From: Amphiscolops sp. MND2022
Taxonomy: Eukaryota
Direction: 5' to 3'
Assembly (NCBI GenBank): GCA_964187785.1
Contig: OZ076415.1
Span: 22,010,001-22,074,000 of the forward strand
DNA: 64,000 bases
Part shown: piece by piece, positions 349 through 62,186 of the stretch
Position numbering within the stretch: position 1 is the first letter of the stretch
Layout of the letters: every line of letters starts with the position of its first letter
Notes under the pieces: model-generated
Database searches by the model: none
Seen by the model: only the letters and a program-made list of their open reading frames with translations
Told to the model about the DNA's origin: nothing
Made by a program: the position numbers and the translations under genes

Positions 349-3300
349 ATGGCTTTGAAGATTTGCTCCGTTGTTCTTCCGATATGGAGCTGCTGATTTC
401 CAGAGTGGCAATGAGACAAACCTTAACTATTCCGATGATGATGTTATCAGATCAGAAGGAGAAAGCGTGCGTCCCACTTTTGATTGGTAAAACTTCTGAA
501 TTACATGGGTAATTGGACTGCTGTCTTGGTGATCAGCCTTTTCAGTCTTACCTGGTTACCTGACGCGTCAAATCAGATCTTGATTTTCAGGAACTCAACC
601 TGCTACTTCCTCTGTTGCTCCCGGAGTTTTTCCGACTAGTTCTTCTTTTGTGGCTGAGAAGGTGCTTCACGATCCTTCTACCGTGTTACCACCAGGGTCT
701 TTTATACTGTCTTATGCTCTCCCACTTACTGTTAATGAGGTGTTAGGGATCCCGATCTCGCACATTCTCCTACTAGTGTCCCACCTGTTTCCGCGGACGT
801 TCCGATGGCCAGTTCCCTTGCTGTTAATAAGGCTGGCTTACTCGAGGCAGTGACTGATTCCCGACTGTTCCTCGATTTGGCGAAGAGCCTCACGAAGGTG
901 AGGCTGATCCCTCCGCTAGAGTGCCGAGCGCAAAGTGTGCTGTTTCGATTTGCATTGATTAGTTCCATAGTGTGCTCGTGATGTTAAATAGGTCGTTGAA
1001 TAGATTCAAGGGTGTCTAGCGAAAACGTGCTGTCAAAATTGTGACGCCTTCAAAGCGTGCTAGGAGATCTGCGCAACTTCTTTCATCTCCTCCTCTTTTG
1101 ACGGCAGCACCGGAGATTTGCATTAGTTAGTATTGTTTTTATGTGTTATCAAGATTCATTCAGCCGAACTCATTGTCATCAGTTGCCAATCATTCAGTAT
1201 GGACGAAAAAGAGGGGCACTTGTTGGTCCTTGTATAGTCCTTATGTGGGGTATGGTGTTGTAGGTCAAGATGAAGATCCCTTGTACGAATCCGCGGGGAT
1301 GGCGATGAGTCCCTGTGGCGATGGGGATGTGACGTTTTTGGTTCAGCAACTTGTGGATGAGGTGGGGAATCTTACAACGCAGACTATTCAAAGCGGTATG
1401 TATATAGTCGGCATATAATTTGTTATGTTTGTTGACTGTGTTGTCGTTTGGTTCCTGCTGAGTGTTCGTTTGTTGTTGTAGGCTTTCAAGGTCTCACTCC
1501 CAGGGTGGAAGAACGTCTCAGTGTCACCAAAAAACCGAAGACATACAGTAGTCGAAACATGTTGCGGCGCGATATGTTGGATTTGCATCCTGTTTACCGC
1601 AATTTCGTGTCAGGCCCAAAATGTGGTTCTGGCAAGTATTTCTTCTGCCGTTTGTGTCAACGTGATGTTGGCATGAAATCTCAAGGATCTGGTGAGTTCG
1701 CTTGGCACTTTAGGAGCGACAGGCATTGGATGAAAGACGTCACTTATCGAGAGCACATGGGACTTCCTGATTTGAATCGGCTGATGGAGCCCATGACAAT
1801 ATCGGAGAGTCAGCTGGTTGATTATAAATCTCGGGCTTTGGTGGATTTGGCGGAAGGGTATCCCTTTCCGGAGGATCTTGTACCCAAACACGTTACAGTG
1901 ACTTTCTAGTCTCTAGTGACATTCATGACGCTCGCTCGTTTCCAGTTTCTGCGATCTCCTTCAGAGCAGGGGTGACTATGGGGACACTTCTGGTCAATCC
2001 TCGGGAGCCAGAAACCTGACATTGCAGTGAATTGGAGTTATTCTGAGACCGTGGTTAGTTATTTGGTATTCTTAGTATAGTGTTTTTTTCTAGTTTTGCC
2101 TCTTTTCTTTTGTCTTTGCTGTGGTGATTGGTCGTCTTGGTTTCGCATTTCTTCATGTTCTTCGTTTGTTTCAGTCTTTCTTGTGTCAGGGGCTTGCTAC
2201 GCGGGTGCTTCGTCTGACTCTAAAGAGTGTAGTCAGTCTCAAGGAGTATGTCTTTCAAAATGAGAAGTCTGGAACTGAAAAACGCTTTTATATGCTCTGT
2301 TGGGAAGGCAATTATCTCAAGAAGATTTGCGTGAGATGTCAATCCGTGGACCTTCCGGTGCCTGATGCAGAGCTAGTGCCCTTGGCTCGAGTCGTTCATT
2401 GCCTCAGCTCACAGCGATTGCCTTTCTCCGTAGTGGGTGGTAGCGCGTCCTTGCTCCGAGTCTCGGGCGATAATCGCGATGACGATCGGGAATTTATGTG
2501 TGTAGCGCTTCAACGAGGACGTTTTTATGCGATGTTTCCGGCAAGCACACCAGGACATCTTCGGCATATTGGAAGTGTTGACAGCAGTCGAGTATGTGAT
2601 TCTGCGGCTAAAGAGTGTGGTTTACGAAGACTGGGTGGAGGACAAACCATGTTTGAAAAAATGTGTTCAGGCTGGATTGGCGGATCTGATAAAACTGTGG
2701 CCTTCAATCCGGCCTTATATTCGTTACACTGGACATCCCTACCTCGAAGATGTCAATGACAGGGTGATTGTTTAAATTTTGATGTTATTCTGGCAATTTT
2801 GTTGGTCCAGTGATGTTGTTATAACTTTTTGACTGGTTGATGGGTTTCCGTTTTTCTAGCTGCGAGGCACCGACTTCGAGTTAATCTCGGATAACTTAAT
2901 GGTGTTTCGCTTTGGGTTGCTCCGTTAGGTGCACAATTTGTGTGTGTGTCCAATCCTCTCCCGTTGACTGTTGTTTTTTGACTGATTTCACTGTATTGTT
3001 TGGTTTGTAGATTGTGATCTGTTTGTACAAACTGCTGTCCGTTGCCTCTGCGGGTGTCAATGCATAGTTGAAGTTTCAATCAATGTCAAGTTTGAGAAAC
3101 TCCAGCGGAATCGGGCTAATTACAGATTTCACGGCTACGGTGAAATTTGTAATTTTGTGTATTGTTTGCTTCTGAAGACCCGACGTAGTGCCGATTTGCC
3201 TGGTAACCAAGACGTGGAAGCATACATGGATCTCTCAAAGTTGGATTCCTTCGGTTCTCTGCCAAGAGACGAGTTCGTGGTGAACTATTTTTATGGAATA

Positions 3301-4253
3301 AAGCGTGCCGCCGGGAAGATGAGTGAGATCCGGGAATTTTTTGTGAAATGTCGTGCTTTCCAGGTTCATCTTGTGGTTGTGCTACTCCGGAACGTGACTG
3401 TGACTGTAAGTTGTCTCAGGGTGTGTACAGGTTTTGTCCCGAGATTTTGTTGGAAGGAGACGATAGTACTGTGTTTGGGCTGTTTGCTTCGTTGTGCGAG
3501 CTGTTGAAATCTTACGATGTAGTGACGGTTGATGAATCAGAGGCTGCTGTGGAAGATTTTCACAGTTATATTGTCGAGAAACGGAGGCAGCACGAGGGCG
3601 GGAGTCATACAGCTAGTGACATTCCGGATGTTATTCGATATCTTGTTCGAGATCTCAGTTTCCAGGCACTAGTTCACCTTTTCCGCGTGTTCAAGCTTTG
3701 TTGCCTGATCATTGGAGTACCGGAAAGTGTTCCTCCTTCTGTGGTCATCATCAATTTGAGTGGTTGTGCCTTCAGTGTGGACGCTTTTCGTGAATGTTTG
3801 CTGTGGTACAGTCGTATATCTTTAGTTGGGGTTATGCGCACCAGTCCTTCTTCGTAGAGAGTTCCTTGGATAGTGTAAGGGAAGCCATTGCAATGCTGGA
3901 GTCTTCTACGTGTCCCCTAATTTCGACTTAGGGCTATGAGTGCATCGTACGTACTGCATCGTTGGATGATTTTATCTGTCACTGTAGATCTTCATAACGC
4001 AAGTTTTTGTTGGAGCGCCGGAAATCTTGCGAGAGTTATTACATCGGTCTCAACTAGAAAGAATGTCCCTAATGAGCCTGTAACTGTTAGTCCGAAGTCA
4101 AAAAAGAACGAGGTTCAAGCGGGTGATACTATTGTGAGAGGTGACAAAGGCACTAGCGTGGCAAGAAAGCCAACTAAGGGCAAAGGAAAACATAATGAAG
4201 ATCCGGATGACAATCCGAAATTTTTGAAAATTTTGTTCCTTCCGGACTGTTGA
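349..4253 (+). pseudogene. Degenerate BED-type zinc-finger / hAT-transposase-like gene, copy 1 (antisense to Gypsy element 1)
   Basis: FVSGPKCGSGKYFFCRLCQRDVGMKSQGSGEFAWHFRSDRHW (C2H2 BED-like finger, ~1590-1730); many stops and frameshifts; candidate GT-AG introns 2054-2174 and 2764-2859; block-by-block similarity to the minus-strand gene at 29818-33764. The hAT relationship is inferred from domain order and weak motifs only. Start coordinate approximate. Confidence 0.6.
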
Positions 4254-4385: not shown

Positions 4386-7300
4386 TCATTCTTGCGTTTG
4401 AGGCATTTTTTCCGCAGTGACAGCGTCGAGCATCCGAAAATCTGAGCGTGCATTAGGCTTAGGATAAGGGCGTAGATTGTATCTCCCTGTTTCTTGTGGA
4501 TTGTATCCAATTACAATAGGCGGTAATTCCGACTCTTTAGGTGGACTTTCTATAGGCGGTGGGGAAATTATGTAGGTGTTGTCACCAATGTCCAGATTAA
4601 ACGACGTAATATCCCCGGGTGATGTTGTGTTTTCGGTTGAATCTCCACATGCGGTTGTTATAAACGCTTAATTTTTTGCGTTGTCTGTGCGTCATCATAC
4701 GGCACTTCTGTCATCGTAGCTTCTTCATTTTCTTGCACCGGTGAGTTTCCGAACAGGACTTCTCCGAATTCGGTTTCCGAAGCTTGCGCGTACCAATCGT
4801 CATGGTGTGTTTTAACCTCAGGACCTGAAAGTTGATCTTCCGTCTTGAGTGTTATGTCAGGTATTCGTTGATTGGGCACATATTGCCTTAAGCGAATTCT
4901 ATGGAGGGTTTAAGTGTATCGCGTTCCTGTTCTTCGTACGACGTAGTTGTTGGAGAGGATTTTGACTACTATGTAGGGACTGGTCCAAATGCAACCCTTG
5001 AATGCGATTTTCATTGACTGGTTATCAGCCTTCGGGTTCAAGACATAGCGGTAGTCATTGAATTTTAATGGCGTTGTTGTCGCTTTTTTATCATAGTATC
5101 GTTTATACTTCAAGTATGATTGCATGAGGTTATCTTTGGCCGCCTGGTGGATCTCGGCTGATTGTTTCTGTAATTTTTCCGTAAGTTCTGCGCTGTCTTC
5201 TTTATTCCATTCTGGCTTAAGTCCCAGTTTGATATAGAAGATGTTGTACGGAATTTGTCATGAAACACTCTCATGATAGCTTGTGTTGTAATTCATGACT
5301 GCAATTTTTACGTATCTATGCCACCTTGAATATCGTTCTCCCGTCGATGTTTGTTAAAACGTTTTTAGTGATGCGTGTGTCCCTTCGAGTACGCCTATTG
5401 TTTGGGCGTGTTTCGCTGATGCGTGACTGATCCGTATGTCAAGGGTTTGAGCTTTTGGTTTACAACCTCCGAACGGAATTTTGAGCACTTATCTGTGAGA
5501 ATCATTGTTGGTAGGTAACAATGGCTGGCAATACGTCGACTATGGAACGGTCGACTGTTCTGGCTGTCATGTCTTGGGTAGGGTATGCGAAGAGATATCA
5601 GGAGAATACATCCATCATCGTTATGATATGCTTGTACCCGTTTGATGAAGGTAGGTTTGGTAGTATATCGACTTCTAAACAGTCTTCAGGTCCACCCACT
5701 TGTGAATTCCGTGTTGCTATGCACCTTAGGGCGTATTTGTCGTTTAACTTTGCGTTTTTTTGCTATACTGTCAGGGCAATTGATGACCCAGGCTCTGAGT
5801 TTTCGTGCTAGTACCGGATCATCTTGGTGATTCCGGGATGTTTGTTCATTTTCCCGTGTAGCGTGGCTAGTAGTTCTGGTTCTATGTGCTTTGGTATCAA
5901 GAAGTAGTGATGCGTGCCGTCCTCTCCGTAATATTTTCACATGATGACGCAATCCTTCACTATTATTCTCTCTTCATTTTTAATTTACGAGGATTTTAAT
6001 TCCTCTGGGTTCAGTTTTTAGGAGGTATTTATCATATTTTTCATGTAGTAGGCGAATCTTTAGTGCCTTCAGGAGCGGGTCGGAGTCTTGTTCGTTACAT
6101 ATTCGTGCATTTTCGTTGATTGCTCCGAATGCGAAAACTGTTGAATTAAGTTGTATTTTTACTATTTTTGTTATTTCTGTAGAGAGGTTTTGCTGCTCTT
6201 TTTTGTCTATTGCTCGTTGTATACTAAGTGTTTACCTTGCAAAAATTTCTTGCTCTGATTCTTCTTCTTCATCTGGTAGGAAGAAGTGTTGTTCTTCATC
6301 GGCTAGGTCTGTTGACTGTAGATGGACCTCTACGGGGGCCATTAGGATGTCGTCGCGCAATTTGAGTTGGACTCTTTCTTTGGGGTTAGATCTCTTCTGG
6401 ACAGGAAATCAGCAGCAGTGATTTGCGATCCAGCCACGTGCATAATGGGGAAGTTAAATTGTATTAAATAGTCACAAGCATTCCATAAGGTAGGTGGGTG
6501 GTTTTTGTTTGAAAAACCTTCGTTACCGATCTATTGTCTGTTAGTACTAGCGTTGGGAGCTTTGTTTCCCATAGGATGTGACTGTACTCTAGAAAAGCGT
6601 GGTAGAGAGCAAGACATTCTTTGCAGTATGATGACATTTTGAGTTGGGACGGAGAGAACACGCGGGATCTGAAGGCGACTGAGGCGAACGTTTTTTTTGG
6701 ATAGTATTTTTTTATCGTCATTGTCTTCTATCATTAGTGCGTATCCGGATGCACTGAAACTAGCGTCCGACATAAGCACGTATTGTCTTCCAGCAGTGGG
6801 TTGTCTGAGTGCTAGTCCACATGCTTCCGCAAGGCTTGCGTTGATGGCTTTGAAGTCATTGACGAGTTCTTCTGAGATGGTGATTTTTGCATCTGCTTTT
6901 AGTAGTTCGTACATTCCGATCATCTTTTCTGACAACCGTGGTATGTTGTTTCGGTAGTAGTTGACGAATTCGATATATTTCTTAACTTGTTTATTTGATT
7001 TACGAAAACTGATACGCCAAGAAAATAGCGATTTTGTGATCTTGCGGGGCTACTTCGTTGAAGTAGTGGTTCTGCCAAGAAATTCCACTTGGGCGACTCC
7101 AAAGTGGCATTTTCGATCGTAAGTTTCAGGCCCGCTTTACGTATGCATCTGAAGACTGCTCGAATGTTCTTGATGAGTTGTTCCGTTGTGTTGGTGGCAA
7201 TCTCAATGTCATCCACGTATTGGGCACACTGGTCTGCTTTGATGACTGTGTCGAGGTACCCCCGCATGAAACTTGAGAATGCTGACAAAGCCCTACTATG

Positions 7301-10300
7301 TCCTTGGGCCTGCCTACGGTAGGCAAACGTCGTACTAGCAAAATTAAACGCAAGTAGTTCTACTGACCTTTGATATGCCATTTGTAGGCAGTGGTATGCT
7401 TGGGAGGAGTCGAGTTTACAGAACATCTTTTCCCCCGCTAGGTGTTGCGCAGCGTCTGAGAGGGCGCTGATGTGGTGATTGTTGTTTATGTACTCGTCTG
7501 AGATGAGGGCGTTGATCTTCCTCAAATCCACGAGTAGACGCAGTTTCCAGTTGAGTTTACGTTGGGCAGAGATGGGGCTGGCATGCTTGGAAAATGGGAG
7601 AGTTGTGATGATTCCATATCTATGCATTAGGGCCAGTTTCACAGTGTTTGTCTTTGAGGTTTATGGGTACGGGTAAGCTCTGTGTGTATACCGGGTTGTC
7701 AGTTTTGAGAGTTTAGGTTGTCATACTTTGAATTGTGTATTCATTCCGATGTCAAGACGGTGGCGGCGAAAATGTCATAGAATTAGATAATGATGGCTTA
7801 TAAGTTTTCACGATCTTCTCCCGTTATAAGTTAGTCATTCCATCGTACATGGAGAGGAATTGTGTTCGAAAACGTTCGTCTTGTTTAGGGTCTACGTGTT
7901 CTAGTTTTTGTAGTTCTCGTAGGTCCTTGAGAATTCGTTGTTGAATGGGGGCTTGTTCCGACTCATTGCCAGGATTCTAAGGTGTTGGGAACCAACATGG
8001 TTTCTTCTGTGTTGTCGGGGGAGTCGACTTGCATTGAGGCATTAACATACGCAACAACGTCGTCATGTTCTGTGAGAAGATTAAGTGCTGCTATGTATAC
8101 TGGCCGTATTGATTTCGTTTCTTCGGGCTTCAAAATCTGCAACTCTGCCAGTTTGTTGTGTGGGGTATAGGTCATAGGGGAAATCCGTTGTGTTGGCTAT
8201 TTTTTCATGGATACAGGTTTGTCACGGGCTGTTGTTGTTGCTGGGGCTACGATGAGATTTGCTGTCTCATCGAACTGTGGTATGGGGTTGGTTGGTCCCA
8301 GTTATTGGGTTGTCGTTACTCACAGTTATTGACGCGTGGATGATTCGTGTGGCGTGTGCTGGGATGGTGAGTATCCCCTCAGACTTATTGGGTTTGGATC
8401 TCGGGTTGCACTTTTGCATCTCATCTGTTAAAGACAAGGTGATTTGTATTTTCAGGAAGTCAATAGTACCTTGTGCAGTGTCAAGGATTGCGGAGTGTTT
8501 TCGGAGGAAAGCCAGACCAATTATTGGGAACGACGTTTTAGTCATGATGATAAAGGTTTCTTCGAGCGTATAGTTTCCGATCTTGATATTCATCGTATGT
8601 GGCAGAGGCGTTTTCGAGCTCGGTGTTGGCGTATTGTATTTTGAAAGGGGGTGGTGGTGCTTTTCCAATTATGGATGCCTTTGCTTCTTTTTGTATTTTC
8701 TCCGTGTATCTTGCGCTGAAAACATTCATATAGTCTCCTGTGTCAACTAGAGCGTCTATTTTGACGTTCCTGAATTCGAAAGGGGATGAGGAGCATCCTC
8801 TTTCTTTTCATAAGTGTGATTGCTGACCTTGATGGGATGTAGTCGTCATCTTTGTCATGTTGTATGAATTCCTTAATGGCTTTGAGGTCGTGAGGCAGTG
8901 TTTGTGGGCACTCTGTGACTCCCCCGTTGTTGTTGGGCACGGTTTGTGGCGGCGAGGAGCATTGATAATCTCTCTTTGTTGTTTCGCTTGTTGTGACCAG
9001 ATCGTGTTGTCTTCGATGCATATATTGTGCTCTGTGTCTATTGGCGTGGACGTTACGGCAAAAGGCTCTGATGGTATCGTTTTTGGCTTCTTCAGGATGG
9101 GTGACAATGGTGGGTTTTCCTGTGGATTTGGATTTTGTATTTTAAATGTTCGGGTTTTGGTATCATATATGGTGGGTTCGTCCCACGGATCACAGCGGTA
9201 ATCCTTGTCATAGATGTAGTTTGTGTCGGTTTGTGATTCTGGCAGTCGTCGTTTGAGTGTGGCATAATTGTCCGGATTCCGTTATTTGTTGGGGAAGTGG
9301 CGTTGGGTCGTCCGGATGTCTGGCGTTGTGACGGAAGATCATACCTACGTTCCAGCGTCGTTGCCAATCTTGGGTTGGTTCCTCATTGTTTTCTGTCATG
9401 AAGTCATAACGGTTTGGGGGGTCCTCGATTGTGTACACCCTCGCGTCTACCACTTTCTCGATGCGTAGGCATGGCGATCTTAGTTTTTGGCTCAACTTCG
9501 ATAGTGGGGATCGGTCGTTCGCTTATTTGACTTGTGGGTTTTGCGAACTCATGTGGTCGTCTTCTGGGGTCATTTGCCGCGTTTGCTTCGTTTCAGCAAT
9601 TTTTTGTTTTGCGGGTGTTTCCGCATGTGTCGCATTTTGGTTTTGGAGGGTCAGCGGAGTTGGGGACTCCATTTTGTGCTTTAATTTCATAGTACCCGTC
9701 TTTCCTCAGTTTGCGGCATTGCGCTTTATAGTGTGCATATTTCCATAGTGACCAGAAAACAGTTTCCTCGTTTGTTTTGTTTTTTCGTCACTTCCGGCGG
9801 GGCGACGTCAACTGAGTTTAGCGGAACGAGAGTGGCTTCGTCAGGAGCACCCAGGCCATTGAGGCGCATTTCTCTTTCGAGATGTCCTTGTATGGCTTGT
9901 CTTCTAGGTAAACCCGGCTAAGGATCTTGACATGGTCTGGCATTTTTGCATATATGGCTTTGTCTATGAACTTTTGCGCCCCTTTACCAAACGCTTCTTT
10001 TGCTGTTTTTTGTGATACGTCTAGGAATTCATGGAGTTTCTGTTGGGTTGGGTCGAAATGTAAGGAGTCCCACACACATCGAGCCTTAGCTGACAATTGG
10101 AAATCTCCGAAGTGACGTTCGAATGCCGTACTTACTTCTTCAAGGTTATCTTTTTTCACGTCCTCCAGATAAAAACACGCCTGGAGCGCGTTGCCACGAA
10201 GTAGTGAGTGAAAATAGGTAATTTTCTGTACCTCGGTTGTATGCGGATACATTTTGATGTTATTTCTGAATAAATCTTCGAAAAATTCGAAGTTTTCGGA

Positions 10301-10871
10301 CTTACCATCAAACACTGGTAGTGAGCGCTTTTGGCATAGGGGAAAAGTGGGCGGTTTTTAGATGTCCAGGTTGTTGTGCAAACAGTAGTCTCGACGTCGA
10401 GGGACGTTCATTGGGCGGCAGGCTTTGTGGGCGGTATGGGCGTGGTTTCTTTTCCCCCATATTCGTGGAGTCATTAAAGACTCCTGTCACCATGTTACTG
10501 TCATCCACCCTTGTCGTTTTTGGATTGGTCGTAGTAGTTCTAGGTTCTACAGATGTTGATGTTATAGTTGGCGGGGCATTTTCGTTTTCAGAATCAGATT
10601 CTTCAGGCACAGCTAGTGTAGCTTGTTTCTTAGCAACAGGTGCTATTAGTTTAACATTTCCATTTGGTTTTCAGCTAGATTTTTAGTGCGATCAGAGAAG
10701 TTTTTTTCTGAGGATTGATTTTATCTCCTCTAAGTTTTGTGCTTGGACCTTTGGCGATTTGCTCGTTCCCGCTACGGGGTTCTCATCTTGAATGTTCCCA
10801 CTTAAGGACGGTTCTTGCTCAATTGAGATCAGTTGTTCTACTGCTTTCCTTTTCTGGCTTCTAGTAGTCAT
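4386..10871 (-). mobile_element. Ty3/Gypsy LTR retrotransposon, element 1: decayed gag-pol
   Basis: gag starts MTTRSQKRKAVEQL at 10871, capsid-like FDGKSENFEFFEDLF; protease LVDTG ~8740; RT with YVDD at 7208-7219 and KLDSSQAYH; RNase H VLMSDASFSASGYAL / LALYHAF / VLTDNRSV; integrase ~5950-5150. Order PR-RT-RH-IN is Gypsy-type. Many frameshifts. LTRs not delimited. Confidence 0.93.
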
Positions 10872-11974
10872 TTTTGGAAGAGAAGAAGGGATTCTTCGGG
10901 AATGTACATTTTTTCAAAGAAAGATTTTTGTCAACGTAAAGTTCGCGTAACAGCAAAAGATTATCTGAATCTTTACATGTGTTCTAATCATATATACTTT
11001 CTCAGCATCATTTGTTCCTCACCTAAAAATTCCTAGGAATCTTTAAAATTGGTTTTGTTCACAAAAAATGTAATCTTTCTTAGTATTTCAGCCATTCGAT
11101 CATTAGTTCAGGTTTTAAAATTCCTGGTCACGACTGCCTTACGAAGCGTCTGTTGAAAACAATTTTGTTCAGCAATCCCATTTCCGATTCAGCTAAAGAA
11201 ATGGCGGCAAAGTAAAAGTCTAGTTGAAATTCTACCAAAGAAAGCACGCTGGCGTGAATAATGATTCAGCGCGTAAGCGGCAAAAATCCTCTTTCGCGTC
11301 AAAAGAATGACAAGCATAAAAATGGTTTCGATAGTCTTACGGTGAAATTCCGACTTCAAATGCCCAAAAATGTTCGAGCTATTTCATGGAAGGAACAAAT
11401 GATGCTTTAAAATGGCGTATTGAAGCCGCAAATACATGTTTCATAGCAACAACAATTGACAAACATCAATGGAAATTACCAAATTTCATATCAACAACAA
11501 TTAACAAGCATCAAAAATAACTACCTAATTAGGTTTCCAACAAATTAATCATTGAGCCAAATTAGGCGTTCAACCAATGATTTTCACAATAACAACACAT
11601 TTGGGTATTCAACAAAATCTTTCTGATGCGACTACTTCCTTGTCTTTACCTACAGTACGACTATTCTAGTCATTCCTATCAACCCGAGAATTAGGCGGAA
11701 CATAGAGAGCCTAGCGTTGTTAATTATTGATTACTCCGCAATGATTCCGTACGTATTAAGGTCAAGTACAGATGTCGAGATTAGCTTTTTATCTAACAAA
11801 TTTTTCCGTAGTTACTCCGTACGTAAAAAGACTGACTAATAGCTAGCTTAATAGTCTTCAATTTTACAATTCGCCCCGCAGCTACTCCGTACATATTGGT
11901 TATGATTGAAGGAGAGCAAGCGGAGTTGTGGCGGATTGCTTAGGCGTTCATTCTCTTACTCTTATTTAGTTGAC

Positions 11975-11988
11975 GTTGCTATGGTAAC
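11975..11988. promoter_or_regulatory. RFX X-box-like motif GTTGCTATGGTAAC
   Basis: Exact match to X-box consensus GTHNYY-AT-RRNAAC, ~1.1 kb upstream of element 1 gag; function unproven. Confidence 0.3.
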
Positions 11989-21237: not shown

Positions 21238-24200
21238 TGAATGAATAGAACACAACGAGTGCATCAGTAATAACTAAATAGCCTTACTTGTCTAAACAAA
21301 GCTAATGCTGTTACGATATGAAAGTAAGGCCTGATACGGTCAACCGACTTCCATTTCTCAGAACCAATATGAAATTGATGCTACCTTTGATAATGTATCA
21401 ATGAAATATGTACTATGGATTGCAGAATATTCAACCTCATGTAAATATCGAAATGTAATGTTGCCCTTTTTTCCCATACTGGAGTGAGTCCAAAAAAACC
21501 TTTACGGCCATGAGCCGTGTAGGGTCAACATGAATTGTTGTGCATGTAAAATTGTTTCTTCCATGAAATTACGCTTGTAAACAATTTGACCTATACGCCC
21601 TATGTCCTTGTCGGGCGCTTTGATCTAACCGCCTGCACTAGCCTGCAGTGATGTCATATTGCTATTTATAGACTTGATGTAACTATTTTTAGCCTTTGTG
21701 TTGTTTATAGTATCATGACAGTTAATTTTGTGAGTGTCATCATAACGTGAATATGCCCAAATTGGCTCTTAGACTCAATAATCAAATGATACAGTTATTG
21801 TTCAGTTGCTCTTATACTAGTTGTACAAGAACCCTTGTGAAACTCAGTTTTATATATTCCACAGGAACTATTTAAATATTATCTCCTGGAGAAACATTTT
21901 CAATGCTTTCCACAAGGAAACGACTTACTATCCAATGGCCTTGAGACCAACAAGAATAACCAATGCTCATACTGCAAAGCTGAAGACAATCTTGGAAAGA
22001 TTGCCCAAAACTCAAAACGAAAAAAAGAAACGGAGGCCAAAAATGGCAAGAAGCCTCAACGCCCAACTTATCCAGAATGTCCCACTTGCAGCAAAACCAA
22101 TCACCCAGCAGAGAAATGTTGACGTGGTGCCGGAGGCCACTTTCGTCTCAAAAGGAATAGACAGGACTCCAAAGATACGGACCCCTCTGAAGACGGAGAC
22201 ACCCACACCAAAAATGACAAACCTGAAACATCTACATCAGACCACTCCAATTCGAAGAAGCCTTGAAGACTCAATGAATGAATAGAACACAACGAGTGCA
22301 GCAGTAATAACTAAATAGCCTTACTTGTCTAAACAAAGCTAATTCGGTTACGATATGAAAATAAGGCCTGATACGGTCAACCGACTGAATGAGTACTTCC
22401 ATTTCTCAGAACCAATATGAAATTGATGCTACCTTTGATAATGTATCAATGAAATATGTACTATGGATTGCAGAATATTCAACCTCATGTAAATATCAAA
22501 ATGTAATGTTGCCCTTTTTTCCCATACTGGAGTGAGTCCAAAAAAACCCTTACGGCCATGAGCCGTGTAGGGTCAACATGAATTGTTGTGCATGTAAAAT
22601 TGTTTCTTCCATGAAATTACGCTTGTAAACAATTTGACCTATACGCCCTATGTCCTTGTCGGGCGCTTTGATCTAACCGCCTGCACTAGCCTGCAGTGAT
22701 GTCATATTGCTATTTATAGACTTGATGTAACTATTTTTAGCCTTTGTGTTATTTATAGTATCATGACATTTAAATTTGTGAGTGTCATCATAACGTGAAT
22801 ATGCCCAAATTGGCTCTTAGACTCAATAATCAAATGATACAGTTATTGTTCAGTTGCTCTTATACTAGTTGTACAAGAACCCCTGTGAAACTCAGTTTTA
22901 TATATTCCACAGGAACTATTTAAATATTATCTCCTGGAGAAACATTTTCAATGCTTTCCACAAGGAAACGAAAAGCCAAGGCCAGAAAATCAAGAGATTT
23001 AGATATGGTGTCCGATTACGGCAATATGGACGTAATGTTAGGTGAAAGAAATTCCAACTCTATAGAAAGAGAATTGGACAGCCTAATTAACGTCCCTGAA
23101 AGGCAGCAAGACTTCCAGTATTTCCCTAACAGGGAAAACTCGTCTTTAGAAAATGAAATTAGAGACATTGATAGTAGAAATGAGCCTGTTAGAGAAAGTA
23201 GACCAATGGAGTCGATCAATAAGATATCAGGAGAAATGAAATCTAGGATGTCTCGGGATTTGGAGACAATGATGGACGTAATGCACACCCAAATTAGTAG
23301 TGTCATTAGTTCGGTTATAAGTGAGAGAACTATCCCGGAGATACAAAACATGGTAGAATACTTGCCTTGGAACCAACATGGCGTTGAACCGTGTACGTCC
23401 ACAAATGAGGACAGAGCTGTGAATGTATGGAAGAACGCAAGTACAAAATTAGCAAAGAAGGACTCAAGGTCTACTTGTGATCTGAGAGATCACACGGACA
23501 ATGTTCCTTACATGGTGACAGGAGCTAACGATCTCCAACAGTTGATTCCCGAATTCCTCACAGGACCAATTCACTCTCAGCCAGACCTTCAGAGACAGGA
23601 ATCCGCGCATGATACAACCCTGGATACAAATCTACAGGTGGCAGAGCCCGTCACAGCCGCGAACAGCCACAAGACCCTATCAATCAACTGGCAGATGTGT
23701 TGGTAAATCTCCAAAGCAAACGACAATCAATGACAATCCCACCGGTCACGACAAACCCCATGACTTTCGATGGCAAAACAGCGAAAATCGAACGGTTTGA
23801 AGATCTATTTCATACAATGATCAAAATAGAGCCCGCCGTGACTGAACAGTTAAATAAAATCACTTTCACTCATTACTCAGAAAGGGGGCTCTACAAACAT
23901 TTCCCAATATGAACTCTATAAACGGTCAAACACAGGAGGACGTATTGGTCATCGTTCGCAGAAAATACGTCAAACCCGACTCTCAAGCCACAGCCAATCA
24001 TAAGTGGCACCGACTTATTTTTGACCCCAAAACGATAAAATTGCCTGACTTTCTTGAAAAATTCAATCAAGGAGCCGAGAAAGCCTTTGGAAAGAATGCT
24101 ATAAACATGATTGATAGCCTGCATTTTGCCGAATTACATCCCAAGCATGGCCCGGGTAGAAAACGGAAAAAATGAGGAAATCGTGGCACTTCTTGAATAG

Positions 24201-24603
24201 TAACTTGAATTAAATGCCTTAGAAGAATCTGACAATTTACCCATTGTCACAACTTACTATCCAATGGCCTTGAGACCAACAAGAATAACCAATGCTCATA
24301 CTGCAAAGCTGAAGACAATCTTGGAAATATTGCCCAAAACTCAAAAAGAAAAAAAGAAACGGAGGCCAAAAATGGCAAGAAGCCTCAACGCCCAACTTAT
24401 CCAGAATGTCCCACTTGCAGCAAAACCAATCACCCAGCAGAGAAATGTTGACGTGGTGCCGGAGGCCACTTTCGTCCCAAAAGGAATAGACAGGACTCCA
24501 AAGATACGGACCCCTCTGAAGACGGAGACACCCACACTAAAAATGACAAATCTGAAACATCTACATCAGGCAACTCCAATTCGAAGAAGCCTTGAAGACT
24601 CAA
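21238..24603 (+). repeat. Internal tandem duplication with deletion: X(21238-21923) Y(21924-22274) then X'(22275-22971) - gag core - Y'(24253-24603)
   Basis: Near-identical sequence pairs readable directly; in the first copy ...CCACAAGGAAACGA is joined straight to CTTACTATCCAATGG..., skipping ~1.28 kb of gag. Confidence 0.9.
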
Positions 24604-27600
24604 AAAACTAATTTTGCCAAGACTCCAATTATTTGACCGAATGTCGATACGACAATATGTCATATTCGACCTTTCCAACGTAACATACAAACAATATTAC
24701 AGTGACATCAATGGAACACCATCAGTCGTCTGGCAGCAACAGATGGAAAAAACCAAAATTAAACATACGAAATGGACCACAACAACCGCCTGGACCGATT
24801 CTTCGACATGGACTATACTACAGCTTTTGAAACACGATTTCGACCACTTCAACTAATCGAAGGTTATGACCCTCACTATATTGACCCTGAATTTGGCATA
24901 GACCAATTCTGGGACAATTCCCTCTAAACGAAAATTGCAATTCAAATGTGAAGATCACCCACCAACAGACGATGAGCATGGCGAAATCCCAGATACCAAT
25001 ATATCAAAGGCGCTCATCGGATTGTGGCAGCCTAATTCTTATATCACCAATGCGGAAGAGATAGAAGACCCAACTATTCAAAGGGCCACAGACCGAACCG
25101 GGCTTATTAGATGAATCAGCCTTTTTACATGTCCTAGTAACTACAGAAGGAGAACCAGCATATAAACCCTTATCCACAAACCTCGGACACAAATACAATA
25201 AACTGATGCTATATTTCCCGATGGACTTTGGGGAAATAACCATAGACGGCCTCAGAGACACTGGAGCCCACTCCAGTGCAATACAAGAAGCAGACCTCAG
25301 GAAAATACGTTTATTAGCGCCTCATTTCATAGTAAATGAGGGACCTGCCCCATCTTTCTAAATATTGGTCGCAAATGGACAATTGGAAACCCAAAGAGCA
25401 CCGTTGAACTCAAGTTCGAAGTTGGAGATATCGAATTCCATGAAAGATTTATAGTAACGGAAAAACTGATTGGCCCCATAATGGGACTAATGTTCCTCCA
25501 AAGGAGTCATACAGTCCTGGACATGCGCCAATGCATACTCAACTTCCCATATTTCTCCATGCAACTCAAAACGGCTGACCCTAAACACTCTAACGTCCTG
25601 GAACCTATACTTAATCCAGACGATTTCACAATACCACCCAATGACCGTATCTTATTATAAATCAAATCCCAGATCCACAACGAAAACACGGTCACAGGGG
25701 TGTTACAACCCAGTGATCTCCTCTACGAGGAAGGCAATTTCATATTTGTGCCGCAATAGTCACGTTGACCAATGGGACTGTCAACGTCCATATCAATAAC
25801 TTCACGGATCAACCATACAGTCTTAAAAAGGGACTACACATAGCAAACTTCTCAGTACTAACACCGGAACAAATGAAGCACGTTAAACCAATCGAGCCGG
25901 TGTCCACGTAGCATCTCCTCAACGAAAATGAGGAGGACGCAATCTTTTTTATCAGTAGTCTACTCAAGGCAAACCGAAACAATGATCAATATGAATAGTA
26001 CGGGTTCCCATCACCAGAAATCCCAGGGGACGAAGATTCCCACACTCCCATCCAACGACAAATTCTACAAGAATTACGAAATCTTCAAGAAACTGAACAA
26101 CTAGACCCTCAGAACAAGGAAGGATCACGCCGTAATTTCTCCAGTAACTTTGATTGGAAAGACTCGATGCTTCAACAATATTAAATCAAAGATCGAATTG
26201 CTCCTAGTTGAATACCACGATATCTTGCAACTCACATATTTGTTATCGGGATTATTGAAGAATTCACGGTCAATCTAACCCCCAAGGACGAATCGCCCGC
26301 TTATAGCCAAAGTCTTCCAACTCCAGTCAACTTAAAGGAAGATATACTTGTCGAGCTGGCCCTCTTACACAAAAATGGATTAACAACTACACTGCCAATT
26401 TCCAAATATGCCAGCCCAATATTTGCACAGAAAAAACCGAAGAGAAAGCTAAGACTACTGGTCGATTTGAGGAAAATAAACAACCTCATCTCGGATGATT
26501 ATATAAGTAACAATCATCCAGTTAGTACCATAAGGGATGCTGTGCAACATATGGCAGGCAAGAAACTGTTCTGTAAACTTGACTGTTCACATGCATTTCA
26601 CTGCCTTCCAATGGCGGACCAAAGGTCCATTGAGATGCTTGCGTTCAGTTTTGCAAGCCGCACCTGTGCCTACAAAAGACTCGCCAAGGGCCTTTGCAGA
26701 GCATTACCGGCGGTTTCAAGCTCTATGGGAGAATACCGCGATGAAGTTGTCAAAGCTGATCAATTTTCCTAATATGTGGACGATATAGGCATAGCCGCTA
26801 TTGACGCCAATCACCCTATCAAAAACCTGAAAGCAACATTCGAATGCATCAGAAAAGCGGGACTCAAGCTAACAAAGTATAAATGCCACTTTGGGGCAAC
26901 GGACATTGATTTTCTAGGGAAAACAATCACTCCGGAGGGCGTCAAACCACAAAAGGAGAAAATAACAGCTTTCTTAGAACAAACAAAAGTCCCAAAATCC
27001 AAAAAAGCACTACAGCGATACCTTGGATTCCTAAACTACTACAGGGACTACATCCCAAAGCTATCTGAAAAACTAGCCCCTTTCTTCCAACTCCTCAAAA
27101 AGGATGAGAAGGTCCTAGTGACCACAGAGCTAGTGCAACAATTTAACGAAATTAACCGAGACCTTGACAAATGTAGTCAACTGGCCCTTAAACAACCATT
27201 GCCAAACAAGCAACTAGTACTAATGATAGATGCTAGCTTTACAGCGGCCGGCTACGCCATACTCACTGAGAACGACCCATATCAAAAATATTCCCTCGTC
27301 AAAAAATCATACGCTTCATTGCATATGGGTCAATGACCTTTACGCCATCGCAACTTAAAATGTCAATATACGCCAAGGAATTTTCAGCCATCTACTATGC
27401 ATTTAAAGAATTTGGACACATTTTCTGGAGAGCACCCAAACCGATCACTATCCTTACGGACAACAAATCGGTCACAAGATACTTCCAGACGAGAATAATT
27501 CCTCCGGCACTCTGGAACGCCTGTGACTATGTAATACAATTAAACTTTGTCATAGCACATATCCCAGGGAAACACACTACAGCGACCTACTACTTATCTC

Positions 27601-29669
27601 TCATGGAAATGGACCGCAATTTCGGCAGGCGTAGCAGAAGAGGAACAAGACTTCTTCACAGAGCATGATGAGACAGACGCGCAAATTTGGGAACGTAAAC
27701 AACAAAGCTTTAACAATCTGATCGTCCAAGAAGTCGAAATTCAAATCGACGTAATATCTGAAATTACATTAGATAAAATCACAAATTTTACTCAAAAATT
27801 GCGCAGAATGAACCAAAATCGGCTCGAGCAATCCAAAGACTCTATATTGCGTCAGCTTAAAGCCAAAATTCAGAACGAAGATTACTCTGGAGAAATACTC
27901 CAACAAGATATTCGCTATAAACACTACAATAACAATTTGAACCTATCAGTCCTTCTCACGCGACAGTACTATGATGAAACTGGTCAAATCAAATATCATC
28001 AGATACTCCTACCAAAACACCTACTAAAAGAGCTTTTATCTGCATTACAAGGAACTGCGCACAAACATCCGGGCATTTCTAAAATGCTACAGGAAATTCG
28101 TCAGAAGTATTACTACCCAGGACTAGCCAAACATGTCAAAAGTGGGTAGAAGGATGTGAAATTTATGCAAAAGACAGACGCGTTCCAAGCAACTCAAAAA
28201 CTTCTGAATTGCTCAGCTTGCCTGAATGGGACCTTGGACCAGAGGGTGCAATGCAAATTGACTTTCAACCAAATCTAACAACAAGTGGAGGCTACCAAAC
28301 CGTGATGACAGCGATAGACGTTTACTCTAGTTATCTGTTTGCCTACCCGTTAGTGGAAGCTACCGCTTCAAACACGGCAAAGGTCTTGATAGACATCATG
28401 ACAAAACACACATATCTGCCGACTACACTCATCACTGACAAAAGCACAGCTTTCACGTCAAAAATCCTTGCAGAAATAACGGAAATCCTCGGAATTAAAC
28501 TAAATTGTGCAACTACTAAACATCCATAAACAATTATTAAGCTTGAAAGGACTCATGCCTCACTCAAAATAATTTTGAAAATGACTTCAGGGGATTATCG
28601 CCGTCAATGGCATAAATACTTACCACTGGCTGTAATCAACTACAATACTACCTACCACTCCAGTATCGGTTGTGAGCCGAGCAAAGTTTTCCACGGACGG
28701 ATCCCCTATGATGTCCTAGACCATAAACTTGGAAATAATCCCAACAGAGATTTCTTGCCTCCAACGGACTTTGCAGAAGAAGAATTACAACAGAGAACAC
28801 AAATTCTCATTGACAAAACGAAGCAAAAAATTATGCAGTCATACTTGAAATACAAGGAGTATTAGCCAAGGCAAGCCAAGGCAGCTCCTGTGAACGGACA
28901 AGATTTTTGCATTATTTTGCGGCCTAAAGCAGATAATCAACGATCAAAGATACCGTTCAGGGATTACCGCTGGGTCGATCCTTACCGAATTTAAATGGTT
29001 TTACCTATTGACAATTATATTGTTCGCCGGTTCAAAACGAATAAAACGCAGATATTACACCGAATTCGTCTGAAAAAATTTGTTCCAAATACACCTTTAG
29101 AGAACAAATATTCCAAAGAGAAATTGCAGCCTGATGATGAAACAGTCATTCCGCAAGACAATTTATATACCATCTCATGGGAGGCAGATTTTGATTACCA
29201 GGACTTCGAGCTGAAACAAGATGATAACAGGAATGAAGTATCACAAACACCAGACAGCGATGCTATTGGTACGACTAGTGATTACGTCATTTACGACAAG
29301 GCTAATGATGAGACAAGACCGCGTACGGCCACTAGCCGAGAAACGCACCCATATTGTATGACGAAAAAAACGTCAGTAACAATACTGAAAAAAAACAAGC
29401 AAAGCAGCGAAATCAAAAGGCCGAATACGGCCACTAGCCAAGCAAACCAAAATTCTAGCGACACGCCAACTGAATTGCACAATGAAACTAATGATTGTAC
29501 AAAATATATTCCTAGAAGAGGGGAGGATAATCCCGTGCCCGGAAAATCGAATGATGCAACAAATGAAAAAATGGAGGAAAACTCTAGCCCCAGAGGAGGG
29601 AAATATATCCTTCGAACTAACCCCAACCCCAACTTTACTGATGAACACAGATACTTGTCAGAATTGTAA
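22951..29669 (+). pseudogene. Decayed gag-pol of Gypsy element C
   Basis: gag MLSTRKRKAKARKSR, capsid TFDGKTAKIERFEDLFHTMIK, knuckle CPTCSKTNHPAEKC (~24405); protease DTG ~25258; RT YVDD 26773-26784; RNase H MIDASFTAAGYAIL; integrase AHKHPGISK, AIDVYSSYLFAYP, ITDKSTAF; C-terminal tail ending GGKYILRTNPNPNF. No env ORF. Confidence 0.93.
24602..24608 (+). other. Candidate -1 ribosomal frameshift heptamer A AAA AAC at the gag/pol junction
   Basis: AAAAAAC is directly followed by TAA and the -1 frame is open into pol (LILPRLQLFDR); a similar AAAAAC-TAA sits at the element 1 junction (9483-9488, minus). Local frames are disturbed by decay. Confidence 0.45.
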
Positions 29670-29817: not shown

Positions 29818-32800
29818 TTAGTCTTTAGAAATGCCTTCCTTTAAGTCTTCTACGGCCTTTGAAACTTCCGAAGAAGAAATATTGCCAAAGCAAGCCAAAT
29901 TCTCGGCTTTTCCAGATCCATGAAGTACACTGCGACTTACAGTTGATGATACTGACGAACATTGTGAAGGTATAGTGACAATTTTGACAGGAGTAGGCTT
30001 GAGGCCTTCAAAAGTAGTCATTAGACCCTTCTGGAAAGTAGTACGCCCAAAAGAATCAACGTGCGTCCAACAATCACCAGCAAGCTGCCTAGAATCGAAT
30101 TGTCCGTCCAAATCACGAAATTTGCCGATAGAATCCTTAGAAGTGCAGTAGGTGACAGACTGTGAACAGTTTGTTGAATAAGAATGGGCAGGCAGGAGCA
30201 TATCCACAAGACGACACTTGGGCCTGGAGGTATCTACTTCGTGGAACTTGATAGCTGGAAGGTCAGCCCCACTTTCAGGCTAGCAAAGGCTGCTAAACCG
30301 GAATAGGGTGAATTAAATTCTTACGACTACGAAAGGCGGGAAGAGCAATAAGAAATTTGACCACATCCTTCATCTGCCCATGCTAGTCCTTAAGCTGAGG
30401 GAAATTGGCACGGAAGTAATCAACAAACTCCACGTACTCGTCACGGTAATCAGACTCTTAGGAACGTTGTACCCATCCTCGTTAGTAAAAGGTTTGAAAC
30501 AGAGCCCCAAAGCAGAAAGTAAGTTGATCAATGGCCAAGGAAGTCAGCACATGAGGATCGAAGCAAGCTAGCCCGTGGACAAGGCCGGCGGTAAGGTGGA
30601 CGTCCCGTAACATCGTCTCAAGCAGGAAGACAAAGTAACATCTGGCTGTCGCCGCGAAACTGTCTCTTCCGGTGGCCATTAGTGCACTAAATTCATTCAG
30701 GAAGTCCCGGCTAGAGAGCTGTCTCAGGTCGTCAGGACACAATACAAAAGCCCGCTCCAGTTCGTGTCATCAGGAATGCATTTGGGGAGAACTGCCCGAG
30801 AACAAAACTTCCGGAGAAAACGACAAAATGTCCGAAGGTGAAAAAGGAAGCATCGGGCTGCCCAGAAAGACTGCGCTCAAAGCACTTGCTATCTAAACAA
30901 CCCCCATTATGAGGAAGTGTTCCATGACTTTAGGAGTGACCAAAAGAGTCATACTCACAATCACGAATAATGAGGCCAAAGATCTCCAATTTGACAGTGA
31001 AGTATTCGTCCATCAGGACCATCCACTCCGGACTCTGTGGCCATAAAGAAACCCAAAACCCAGTCTTCAGGTATTGGACCCAACTGGGACGTAGAGGCTA
31101 CTGTACTTTTGCTCACAAACAAATTTTCAACTTCAATTTAGACCTTAAAGCTGTGGTCTTAATGTCATACTTTCGTTGAGAAAAGGAAAACAAGTTGAAT
31201 GGTCAGTAGCTTACCCTACAACGGACTCCCTGTCCAGCTTGGGTGGGTGCCTCTCGTGTCATGAAATCGCGAATGTTTGGCCATTGCGCAACCATCTCTC
31301 CACACAGAGCAGGAAAACTGTGTAGTCCCAGATCAAATTTAGTGATGGCCTAGAAAACACATAATTACTGCCAATACATAGCTCTGAAAGGCTCCCTTAC
31401 CCATTTTCCTGAACAAGAACTCAATCAAACTACTATTAAGAGTATGGAAAGAAAAGGATCTTAACCTTTGATAGGTTGGGGCAGTTTAACTTCCAAGTTT
31501 GGCCAAGACTGGTACTAAGGAACACAGTTAGACACTTGAGTTGGGAAAAGAAGTTGATTTTCCCAAAAAAGCTCTCGAACTTCTGATGCATGAGTCGTGG
31601 TAGCGACAGGACCTCGAACCTGAAAGGGTATTGGATGGAATGCTTGAGTAGGCTGCTTTGGTCAAGAGTCTGTAATACGGCGGAGGGACAACCGGATACG
31701 CTCACCAATTTAGACCCTGCTGAGATGAAGGACAACAGACGGGAAATTGAGCCAAAGAAGTTCCCTCATACGCTGAAGCCAGAGGATGTCTACATAATTC
31801 CACCCTTTGGATGACGTCTCCTCGCCAGAATCGGACAGCCATGTAGCAGAACCCTTTACGGCTTGTAAACTCTAATGAATAATTCCTTTCTGAGGTGATT
31901 AGCACAGCGATATCTTCAGTACAACGGAAGAAGATGCGGTGGAAAAATTTCTAAAAACAAGACTTATTTTGGGAAACCTAATTAGTCAAGGAGTTCTACC
32001 CGACCAAAAAGGCAGTGCAATATTTACAGTGACATAATCAGCCCTCCAATCGGAGTCAGAGAAGTATCCCTGATGGCTGGTGAAGACATCAAATCAAAAC
32101 CATAAAATCCTGAGTAAGGATAAGTGTCCTCCGTGTGGCACGACGAGCCCGATCAAAGAAATTTGTGTGGTCATGCGCACCCCATCCGGGCTTGATGTTC
32201 CCCCCGACGTAGCTACATAGACGTCGTAGCAGGTGAATTTGTCCCCTATGTCCACGAGAGGGGCGTCGATTAACAGAGACTTCTCTTTCTTTAACTGTAA
32301 TGGTGTGAGGAAGTACCCATCCTTGCCTCGGACCTGGTGGGTCATTTTGCCCGTAGAGGCGTCTACTTCACTAAGGTGCTCGTACCTCCATCTTTGATCT
32401 CTCCGTAAATGTCCCTGCGTCTTATAGTGACGAAGTATCTCGCATGCTCCTTTGGAGTAAGTAGATATGTTTGTTTTACATACCTGGCAGTAAAGCTGTA
32501 GCCGTTATGTAGGGGATCGAGTGGCCCAGAGATGAAAGTCCTTGTCCATTGGATGCCTTTAAAAAAGCGTCCTTCATGACCTTTTCAGGTTTGCAGAGCA
32601 TTTTCCTTCGCTCACGAGGAGAGGACTTGAATTGGCTGTAATAGGAGTCTGCACCTGGGTGAGGGAAGCCAACGGACGATAGTCTCCACTGCTGTAACTG
32701 CTGCCGGAGTTTGGAGTTATTGCCCTAGCTGGGCCTATGTCACTTACGGACATGTCTGAAGCCTTGGAGGCAGAAACATTAGGTGGGAAGCCTTCAGAGC

Positions 32801-33764
32801 CTGTTTCGATGTTGCGTATATCTTCATCAGTAGGAATGGCGCCACTTGTATAACCATCGTTGTTGGTCTCTGTGCTTTCTCCTCCAGGGCTGAATTCGTA
32901 CACTGGGCCAGGCCTTGCAGATCTTCGAGGAATGTTCCGAGAAGGGCGTTTATACAATGGAATCCCTTCAGTTACTTTTACCAGCAATGACGTCATGTGA
33001 AACGATGAAAGTACCGATACGTCAGTTATGGTCCTCAAGGTGGCGTGGACCTGAATTTCACTGAAGGCAACAGTTGAATGACCAGCAGGCAAATCAACTG
33101 GGACGTTCTTGGTGAAAAAGTTGCGAATAACCTCTCTCCCAGAAGGCGATAGTCTCCTCTCGATAGAAAGTACCTTGGTCCGGTAAAAGTCATGCTCTGC
33201 ATCGCTATTCCTCGATGAACGTTGAAGCTCTTCGTCAAAACCCGGAAATATGTCGGGGTCAAGGGTGAAAGAGCATGGCCTGGCGGTGGGCAAATTAACT
33301 CCGGAACTATCGTATAATTCACCAGGGTCGCTAGTATCAGAGTATAATGCCCTGCGATCAGGGACGTCTGATTGGGTCTTTTCGACATCCGGATTGACCG
33401 GGGTCGGCGGAAGTGCCACATTGACCATTAAAGGCTCCAACTCAGAACTCTTGGTAGTTTCTTGGAGACTTTCCTCAGGAACGGGATCAAGTATTGCAGT
33501 TTGAGAGGACGGAAACTGAGAGACTGTTCGCTCAATAAAGGCAAGAACGCTTTCATCTGTGGAACATTTTTAAAATGGACGCCTGAGATATCGAATTTCC
33601 TTTTCCGGCTCATTCACTTCTTGGGGCACGTCTTGGAGCTCATCTTGTTTCTGACTAACTGGAACAGTAACAGGATTGGTGGATTCAGGCAAGTTCTCAT
33701 CGTTAGACATATCTAAACGGAAGGAGATAAATTTTAGCGGGTGACTTTCTGAGTACAAATCCAT
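29818..33764 (-). pseudogene. Degenerate BED-type zinc-finger / hAT-transposase-like gene, copy 2 (antisense to pol of element C)
   Basis: Minus-strand translation ~32560-32370: WTRTFISGPLDPLHNGYSFYCQVCKTNISTYSKGACEILRHYKTQGHLRRDQRWRYEHL; long acidic S/P/T-rich N-terminus; candidate GT-AG introns 32027-31951 and 31214-31151; C-terminal DVVKFLIALPAF..NLIH.FRFSSLC matches DVIRYLVRDLSFQALVHLFRVFKLC of copy 1. Confidence 0.62.
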
Positions 33765-41495: not shown

Positions 41496-41499
41496 GGAA

Positions 41500-62177: not shown

Positions 62178-62186
62178 TAGTCGTGT

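Follow-up and report, generated by a model that had tools for sequence, protein, structure and literature searches.

Antisense open reading frames (ORFs) between pol and the 3′ long terminal repeat (LTR) are known from Gypsy retrotransposons of plants and fungi, among them the TRP28/Transposase_28 (PF04195) ORF of Retand, gene23 of maize Grande, and those of rice RIRE2 and Boty; in the accessible text of the two accounts none is described as spliced or hAT-like, and that of the second does not mention introns for them (PMC7264820, PMC11963269). For the plant ORFs, resemblance to any other transposon is denied, and the question of their origin was left open (PMC7264820). In animals, Gypsy-type LTR elements of bdelloid rotifers likewise bear captured accessory ORFs downstream of pol, which are of the env, DEDDy, GDSL and coiled-coil kinds and are expressed from spliced element messages, with neither a transposase nor an intron being mentioned for them in the accessible part of that account (PMC5408684). 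Here we describe a large antisense gene, apparently spliced and probably derived from a hAT transposase, that is an integral module of two families of Gypsy elements in Amphiscolops sp. MND2022. It occurs twice in the window, the whole 64,000-nt stretch analyzed (positions 22010001–22074000 of contig OZ076415.1), and we searched the 1.07-Gb genome for its relatives.

The gene shares with the plant and fungal ORFs its position, its orientation, its presence in most copies and a suspected regulatory role; moreover, the internal promoter and nuclear product of Grande gene23 have their parallels in an internal promoter predicted and a nuclear role proposed here. Unlike them, it resides in an animal genome, codes for ~1100 aa and has 4–7 coding introns. 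In contrast to the plant ORFs, its product would comprise a near-complete transposase body with a finger and a predicted RNase-H fold, and its deeply diverged alleles are exchanged as a cassette; Pfam gave no match to the Retand domain PF04195 in it. Our literature search, to which subscription journals and Repbase entries did not belong, found no animal LTR element reported to carry a spliced antisense gene of transposase origin. Domestication of a transposase is usually the work of the host or of the DNA transposon from which it comes. In the present case, thousands of copies of a class I element maintain a strongly selected, multi-intron gene that is likely to stem from a class II enzyme. 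This would give an antisense accessory ORF a nameable origin, and the natural series of alleles on shared backbones offers a tool for studying counter-silencing by animal retrotransposons.

The antisense gene as a module of two Gypsy families

The first copy in the window (384..4253, + strand) and its relatives constitute family A, and the second (29818..33710, − strand) and its relatives family B. Each converges tail-to-tail upon the pol gene of its element, the stop codons (4251–4253 on the + strand and 29820–29818 on the − strand) lying 133 bp and 149 bp, respectively, from the pol ends. This agrees with a preliminary description of the window, which had noted two such arrangements within ~150 bp, although the starts it gave (349 and 33764) shift to 384 and 33710 when homologous positions are considered. 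Both copies are decayed by stops and frameshifts (2–7 stops per segment in copy 1 and 0–5 in copy 2), as are the pol genes beside them. DNA searches with the window genes returned 1331 (A) and 396 (B) first-look candidates and protein searches with the last exon 7127 (A) and 7443 (B), all of which count candidates and not copies; most of the 128 (A) and 126 (B) last-exon matches listed are free of stop codons. The element family is clearly large.

To gauge the linkage of gene and element, we drew 49 gene-selected loci of 20 kb each, 19 of them from DNA matches and 30 from protein matches spread by hand across 52–86% identity. An opposite-strand pol lies tail-to-tail just downstream of the gene in 47/49, the two exceptions being a locus without pol and one with an assembly gap at that place. 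Flanking direct repeats were found in 44/49, and in 30/49 gag-pol, the gene and another ORF are enclosed by paired TG..CA LTRs bordered by a 5-bp target-site duplication (TSD). Among 28 of these TSD-bearing elements with a full pol, 26 measure 15.4–16.5 kb and the others 17.2 and 17.9 kb. Conversely, 20 loci were taken from 131 integrase matches, all on the + strand and 95–96% identical to the B integrase: all three probed exons of the gene are present in 19/20 (the remaining locus retains only part of the finger exon), and ORF3, a second accessory ORF described below, in 20/20. This integrase-first test concerns family B only, and both samples are biased toward well-preserved copies. The elements thus display TG..CA LTRs, a primer-binding site (PBS), a 5-bp TSD, and gag followed by reverse transcriptase (RT), RNase H and integrase, as is characteristic of Ty3/Gypsy, and the gene is an antisense ORF between pol and the 3′ LTR (aORF-3R). 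The earlier proposal that an antisense, intron-containing gene is an integral module of these elements is therefore borne out by the linkage in 47/49 and 19/20 loci, with the gene placed between pol and the 3′ LTR inside a single TSD in 30/49 loci and in copy 1 of the window.

Nested insertions are, as a matter of general knowledge, common in repeat-rich genomes, and the trees of the gene and the RT conflict (see below); both would accord with hAT DNA transposons having inserted into Gypsy elements independently of each other. Against this, the position and orientation of the gene are identical in 47/49 and 20/20 loci, no inverted repeat of at least 10 bp surrounds it in any of five elements (8-bp duplications were given no separate search), its frames are open inside LTR pairs that are up to 100% identical, and it is under purifying selection even though its catalytic motifs are gone. 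Hence, independent nesting has a negligible probability and is ruled out by the linkage counts.

The unbroken family A copy L023 has eight coding exons and seven introns, and its spliced frame of 1087 aa has no internal stop; the unbroken family B copy L051 has five exons and four introns, with a comparable frame of 1176 aa. Without splicing, the reading frames run into a stop at aa 44 and aa 566, respectively. The two spliced proteins align over 682 columns with 20.8% identity (E 1.8e-33; the score of 127 bits compares with at most 25.4 bits in 100 shuffles), and the blocks that the preliminary description had recognized between the divergent window genes line up in 23–25 sequences. A direct tblastn of copy 1 against copy 2, both decayed, gave nothing at E 0.01. 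Three introns are common to A and B by position and phase (0, 0, 1): a (2054..2174 on + and 31951..32027 on −), c (2764..2859 on + and 31041..31214 on −, with an approximate end and damaged acceptor in copy 2; 170 nt in L051) and d (2942..3076 on +, with an approximate end and damaged acceptor in copy 1, and 30893..30958 on −). Of these, a and c had been noticed before, with correct GT..AG borders for 2054–2174, 2764–2859 and 32027–31951, whereas the intron beginning at 31214 ends near 31041 rather than 31151. The third (2942–~3076 with 30958–30893) is a new addition and delimits an 82-nt exon common to both families (2860..2941 on + and 30959..31040 on −). Beyond these, B has one extra phase 0 intron in the core (b, 31350..31465 on − in copy 2), and A has four in its N-terminal part, a region that abounds in Ser, Thr, Pro and acidic residues and has no alignable counterpart in B.

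In 10 B and 8 A copies the GT..AG sites are constant while the intron interiors vary in sequence and length, the exceptions being a donor missing from L131 and deviations at a few further single sites. From this conservation we infer that the gene is spliced antisense to the genomic RNA. Introns persist through retrotransposition when they are antisense to the genomic RNA; those described here would have survived because that RNA carries them reversed and unspliced.

Ancestry and catalytic state of the encoded protein

Upstream of the presumed transposase body, both copies encode a Cx2Cx16Hx5H zinc finger evident from sequence and alignment (1645..1726 on + in copy 1; 32409..32489 on − in copy 2). 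In 30 B copies, the finger windows are the best conserved parts of the protein (mean identity 0.86 and 0.78 vs 0.51–0.77 elsewhere), and basic stretches lie ahead of the finger and at the end of the protein. The finger proposed earlier is hence present, but its assignment to the BED type is not matched by Pfam zf-BED, with only a weak hit to the C2H2 family PF25420 (E 0.006).

The case for hAT ancestry comes from predicted folds. In family A, the middle exon is predicted (predicted local distance difference test, pLDDT, 70) to form a helix, three strands, a helix, a strand and a helix, i.e., the RNase-H order. A Foldseek comparison, as proposed in the preliminary description, places Hermes at ranks 1–4, 6, 8 and 9 (best E 1e-3, prob 0.77–0.97), ahead of RT RNase H and the P-element transposase. 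For the last exon of family B, whose fold is predicted with pLDDT 92, VIA aligned model residues 1–273 with Hermes 367–609 (165 residues, Z 5.3, root-mean-square deviation 5.7); Hermes ranks 4 of 48,161 with a middling score and is the only domain-spanning row listed. As two collinear exons point to Hermes and are preceded by the Cx2Cx16Hx5H finger, hAT ancestry is likely, and the predicted order of finger, RNase-H core, helical insertion and C-terminal region would be that of hAT transposases such as Hermes and the ZMYM1/PRKRIR/Tip100-like group.

Several results weigh against this picture. Neither a hAT nor a BED family of Pfam matched the gene product, and a hidden Markov model search of the PDB likewise found no match. 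Profile–profile comparison with two hAT alignments (17 Ac-like and 62 ZMYM1-like rows) scored 17–20, vs up to 27 for reversed or shuffled controls. With Foldseek, no match to the middle exon had E <1e-3, and the last exon found nothing in the PDB and viral sets; with VIA, the middle exon listed generic RNase-H-like folds, with Hermes outside the top 50. The catalytic positions discussed below were placed by eye from the predicted strands, using the genome's own hAT proteins for comparison. The first of them holds a Glu in some rows, and there are other conserved acidic columns, so that a new active site is formally possible. In the same vein, PF05699 (Dimer_Tnp_hAT) and DUF4371 were not matched by sequence (in the DUF4371 search the controls, too, stayed silent), the best in-register profile–profile match to hAT reached E 0.14 across 132 columns, which is not significant, and a full-core profile test did no better than controls. 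A search of the ESM Atlas with the last exon gave a top score of 0.90 to an unnamed cluster. In balance, the hAT derivation proposed in the preliminary description holds moderately, on predicted folds and not on sequence profiles, and we consider it quite probable though not proven.

As for catalysis, the first-Asp position is occupied by Glu in 7/23 rows and Thr in 16/23, and the 20 integrase-selected loci add 14 motif matches in which it is likewise Glu; the second-Asp position is filled by Ser, Val, Arg, Phe or Leu, followed by an invariant Gly. The D-G motif is present in 56/62 reference hAT rows vs 0/23 rows of the family, and ERxFS in 56/62 vs 0/130. These counts, which uphold the earlier remark that the catalytic motifs could not be seen, support the view that the protein is non-catalytic. 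The gene product thus departs from hAT transposases in having no second Asp, CxxH, ERxFS, terminal inverted repeats (TIRs) or Pfam match, in its long low-complexity N-terminus, and in being moved by a retrotransposon. The genome also contains ordinary hAT transposases whose catalytic motifs are intact and each of which is encoded in one long frame, some copies being internally deleted (L221–L240); 150 matches were scored in the PF05699 genome scan.

That these ordinary hATs are single frames of 597–697 aa (5 loci) invites the alternative that the source was an intron-bearing domesticated host gene (RNase-H/hAT-derived) or another DDE superfamily rather than a mobile hAT. The fold searches, which also return the P-element transposase, RT RNase H and integrases, and the lack of TIR remnants in all five elements tested would fit such a source. 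Nevertheless, for two collinear exons Hermes is either the top match or the sole one to span the domain, no copy outside an element was seen among the sampled loci save for two uninformative ones of the 49, and searches for longer homologues recovered none, which is weak evidence. We accordingly deem such a source improbable and retain a mobile hAT as the favored one.

Selection, allele exchange and proposed role

The ratio of nonsynonymous to synonymous substitution rates (dN/dS) was computed on the gene core for 91 B and 21 A pairs, keeping those with dS between 0.05 and 1.5. As had been suggested as a check, copies were thus compared among themselves: the median is 0.073 (0.05–0.14) in family B, from the 7/91 pairs passing the filter, and 0.065 in family A, from 1/21; one very close pair excluded by the filter gave 0.54. 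RT medians are 0.035. No pairwise comparison yielded a gene dN/dS >1 (site models were not run). At the codon level, therefore, the data argue strongly for purifying selection on the accessory gene. Between alleles of the gene, synonymous sites are near saturation, the proportion of synonymous differences (pS) exceeding 0.6 in 84/91 B and 20/21 A pairs, while RT dS for element pairs can be only 0.05–0.3.

The proposal that the gene co-diverged with the elements holds at the deepest level, where RT type and gene type agree at the A/B split in 44/44 elements (7/51 were left out for missing parts), and fails within families. There, none of the strongly supported RT splits (two and five) is recovered in the gene tree, although the RT trees are poorly resolved, and gene–RT distances correlate weakly (0.36 and 0.26). 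The element L063 is 97–99% identical to L143 across LTR, gag, pol and ORF3, and its gene is 96–99% identical to that of L059. In the pair L179/L183, RT dS is 0.15 and gene dS saturated. Copies whose integrases are 95–96% identical have last exons of only 47–51% identity. Among 13 non-redundant B elements compared by k-mer distances, the gene shows no correlation with RT (rho −0.02) or the integrase end (−0.04), and values of 0.24 and −0.08 with two parts of the LTR and 0.44 with the promoter region. The tree conflict, L063, L179/L183 and the weak correlations together characterize the gene as an old, diverse and exchangeable cassette; to judge from these comparisons, within families its alleles move from one near-identical backbone to another without regard to RT or LTR. 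Strict gene–RT co-divergence was accordingly rejected on the tree conflict, the L063 chimera, the dS contrast and the correlations; such incongruence had been named in advance as a refuting observation, and it refutes the co-divergence and not the module. A profile of the last exon further matched 1096 unnamed public clusters at 50% identity, ten of which, when looked up, proved to come from ENA assemblies; as 98 of the top 150 clusters are <50% identical to every sampled locus, the diversity of the gene exceeds our sample.

Transposases and their disarmed derivatives activate cognate elements, and TnpA is a transposase-derived regulator, according to a preprint whose accessible part makes no mention of retrotransposons (bioRxiv 10.64898/2026.08.24.746577). 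By analogy, the gene may be likened to Spm TnpA, VANDAL VANC and FAR1/MUSTANG as a disabled or accessory element protein and a proposed element activator, except that proteins of the TnpA/VANC/FAR1 type serve DNA transposons or the host, whereas here a class I element would hold a class II enzyme. Because the finger is its best conserved part, the N-terminus is activation-like and transposase derivatives activate their cognate elements, a nuclear activator-type role appears the most apt. We therefore propose, with a probability of roughly 50%, that the gene encodes a hAT-derived, catalytically disarmed zinc-finger protein that binds DNA in the nucleus and, as an accessory factor, promotes element expression. 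An internal promoter that also serves ORF3 in the opposite direction would drive the gene. The Ser/Thr/Pro/acidic N-terminus might serve as an activation region, with the finger reading DNA and the transposase body supplying an oligomer, as in transposase-derived regulators. Its alleles may spread by template switching between co-packaged RNAs, and conflict with host factors could have retained the old ones.

VANDAL VANC reportedly pairs with its own target motifs, whereas here the alleles do not track the LTR; this independence speaks against a VANC-like pairing of allele and target and is itself a point against the activator role. Given the free movement of alleles between LTR types and the pre-eminent conservation of the finger, the DNA target could instead be family-wide and not allele-specific.

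The same gene, with the same origin, could alternatively act after transcription, in binding cDNA ends, in nuclear entry or in tethering the integration complex to chromatin. Transposase bodies do bind DNA ends, as established for Hermes, the basic stretches ahead of the finger and at the protein end would suit such a task, and nuclear import has been proposed for antisense ORF products (PMC7264820). However, in the 13 B elements allele identity varies without relation to the integrase end or RT, near-identical integrases accompany the strongly diverged last exons noted above, and the 5-bp TSDs throughout are those expected of integrase alone, making this role unlikely. About as doubtful is a conflict factor aimed chiefly at something other than element DNA, i.e., a decoy or inhibitor of a host silencing protein or of hAT-derived factors of the host, or an agent of inter-element exclusion, its diversity being maintained by frequency-dependent selection. 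It would account for the saturated gene alleles on backbones with low RT dS, for L063 with its L143-type backbone and LTR and L059-type gene, and for the 1096 public clusters, but no pair shows a gene dN/dS >1, the finger is the best-kept part, and the same pattern could arise if templates were often switched at a dispensable-partner locus. Returning to the activator role, one can tentatively envisage an extended form, to which we give less than even odds: a domesticated and disarmed hAT, spliced in antisense and controlled by a hairpin intron (see below), whose ancient cassette alleles take part in an anti-silencing conflict, as an animal counterpart of the plant anti-silencing factors.

ORF3, hairpin introns and other features of the window

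ORF3, on the sense strand, is head-to-head with the accessory gene and runs into the 3′ LTR (34886..35700, +, decayed in the window). It codes for ~230–310 aa without a Pfam match, the A and B versions being ~20% identical, and its median dN/dS is 0.18 (37 B pairs), which indicates purifying selection. It tracks the LTR and not the antisense gene; in the 13 B elements it correlates with the LTR start with a rho of 0.86, partly because the two overlap. We also observed an acidic SSDEEE motif and low complexity in ORF3 (window 34886–35700 (+); L051:3298–4224 (−)). A two-way internal promoter is predicted between the starts of the gene and ORF3 (33918..34885). Between the starts, in a stretch of 2.3 kb, CCAAT occurs in 49/49 loci and a TGACGTCA-like word in 47/49, which is weak evidence as no chance control accompanies the counts; we take both words to be promoter motifs.

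In each family, one 5′ intron is far better conserved than its neighbors and contains a hairpin with a GATCA loop. In copy 1 it is the structured first coding intron (483..590, +, with its donor damaged here), and in copy 2 a predicted intron of the 5′ untranslated region (33713..33917, −), both with a conserved TGATCAG loop; TGATCAG or TGATCAA is present in 18/19 A and 30/30 B loci. The six-pair stem of the B hairpin has 14 cells with two-sided changes, a count reached in 0/500 shuffles, though it possibly reflects few events. Rfam had no match within the elements and one mir-like match outside them. This intron could serve splicing control or, on the genomic-RNA strand, as a dimerization or packaging signal. 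Hairpin introns seen elsewhere include L021:4966–5096 and L051:5130–5348, the loop being a palindromic TGATCA in both families, and that of B has several GGAAG/CTTCC words.

Element 1 is complete, with its 3′ LTR immediately left of the window, a 5′ LTR at 10493..12621 (−), 89.9% identity between the pair, and the TSD TTTTG at both ends (12622–12626 in the window). Its pol (4386..9500, −) is decayed, its gag (9485..10874, −) starts within the 5′ LTR, and its PBS lies at 10481..10492 (−); the PBS of these elements, TGGTGACAGGAG, is an identical 12-mer in families A and B. At L039, ~0.7–7.7 kb beyond the left border of the window, a 2.33-kb unit occurs three times in tandem, each time with the 3′ LTR of this element and an identical flank, which indicates local duplication after insertion. 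Copy 2 lies, as the preliminary description had it, between two LTRs, namely the 5′ LTR of element 2 (20836..23512, +), which has an internal ~1-kb duplication, a 355-bp gag-end insert and a PBS at 23513, and its 3′ LTR (35618..37011, +). Since another PBS (37012) and gag start directly adjoin the latter, element 2 has no readable TSD. Its gag and pol (22951..29669, +) are decayed, with RVT_1, RT_RNaseH_2 and rve matched by Pfam in that order at 26212–28526 and a weak Ty3_capsid match. The gag start lies 390–550 bp inside the 5′ LTR and the frame crosses the PBS (L023/L024, L051/L052; window 10874 and 22951). A third, older B-type element at 13899–20751 (−), with LTRs 82% identical, is without the antisense gene on account of a deletion that fuses pol (15697) to the end of ORF3 (15644) and also took most of the integrase.

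Of the remaining sequence, 40800–42617, 44482–46665 and 47597–49580 hold what is left of a BEL/Pao-like element (weak DUF1759) and of two non-LTR retrotransposons, RVT_1 lying at 47597–48781 within one of the latter. The exons of a WD40-like repeat gene of the host, presumably resembling coatomer alpha, extend over 51198–57700 (+) and are followed at 58000–58753 by a 376-bp tandem repeat with 27-bp subrepeats. Finally, 60100–64000 contains a Pox_A32-like ATPase (62495–63169; E 5e-4, below the cut-off), a short EGF-like membrane ORF (60121–60408) and other ORFs, which we take to resemble a Polinton-like or other viral insertion; similar ORFs also flank L034.

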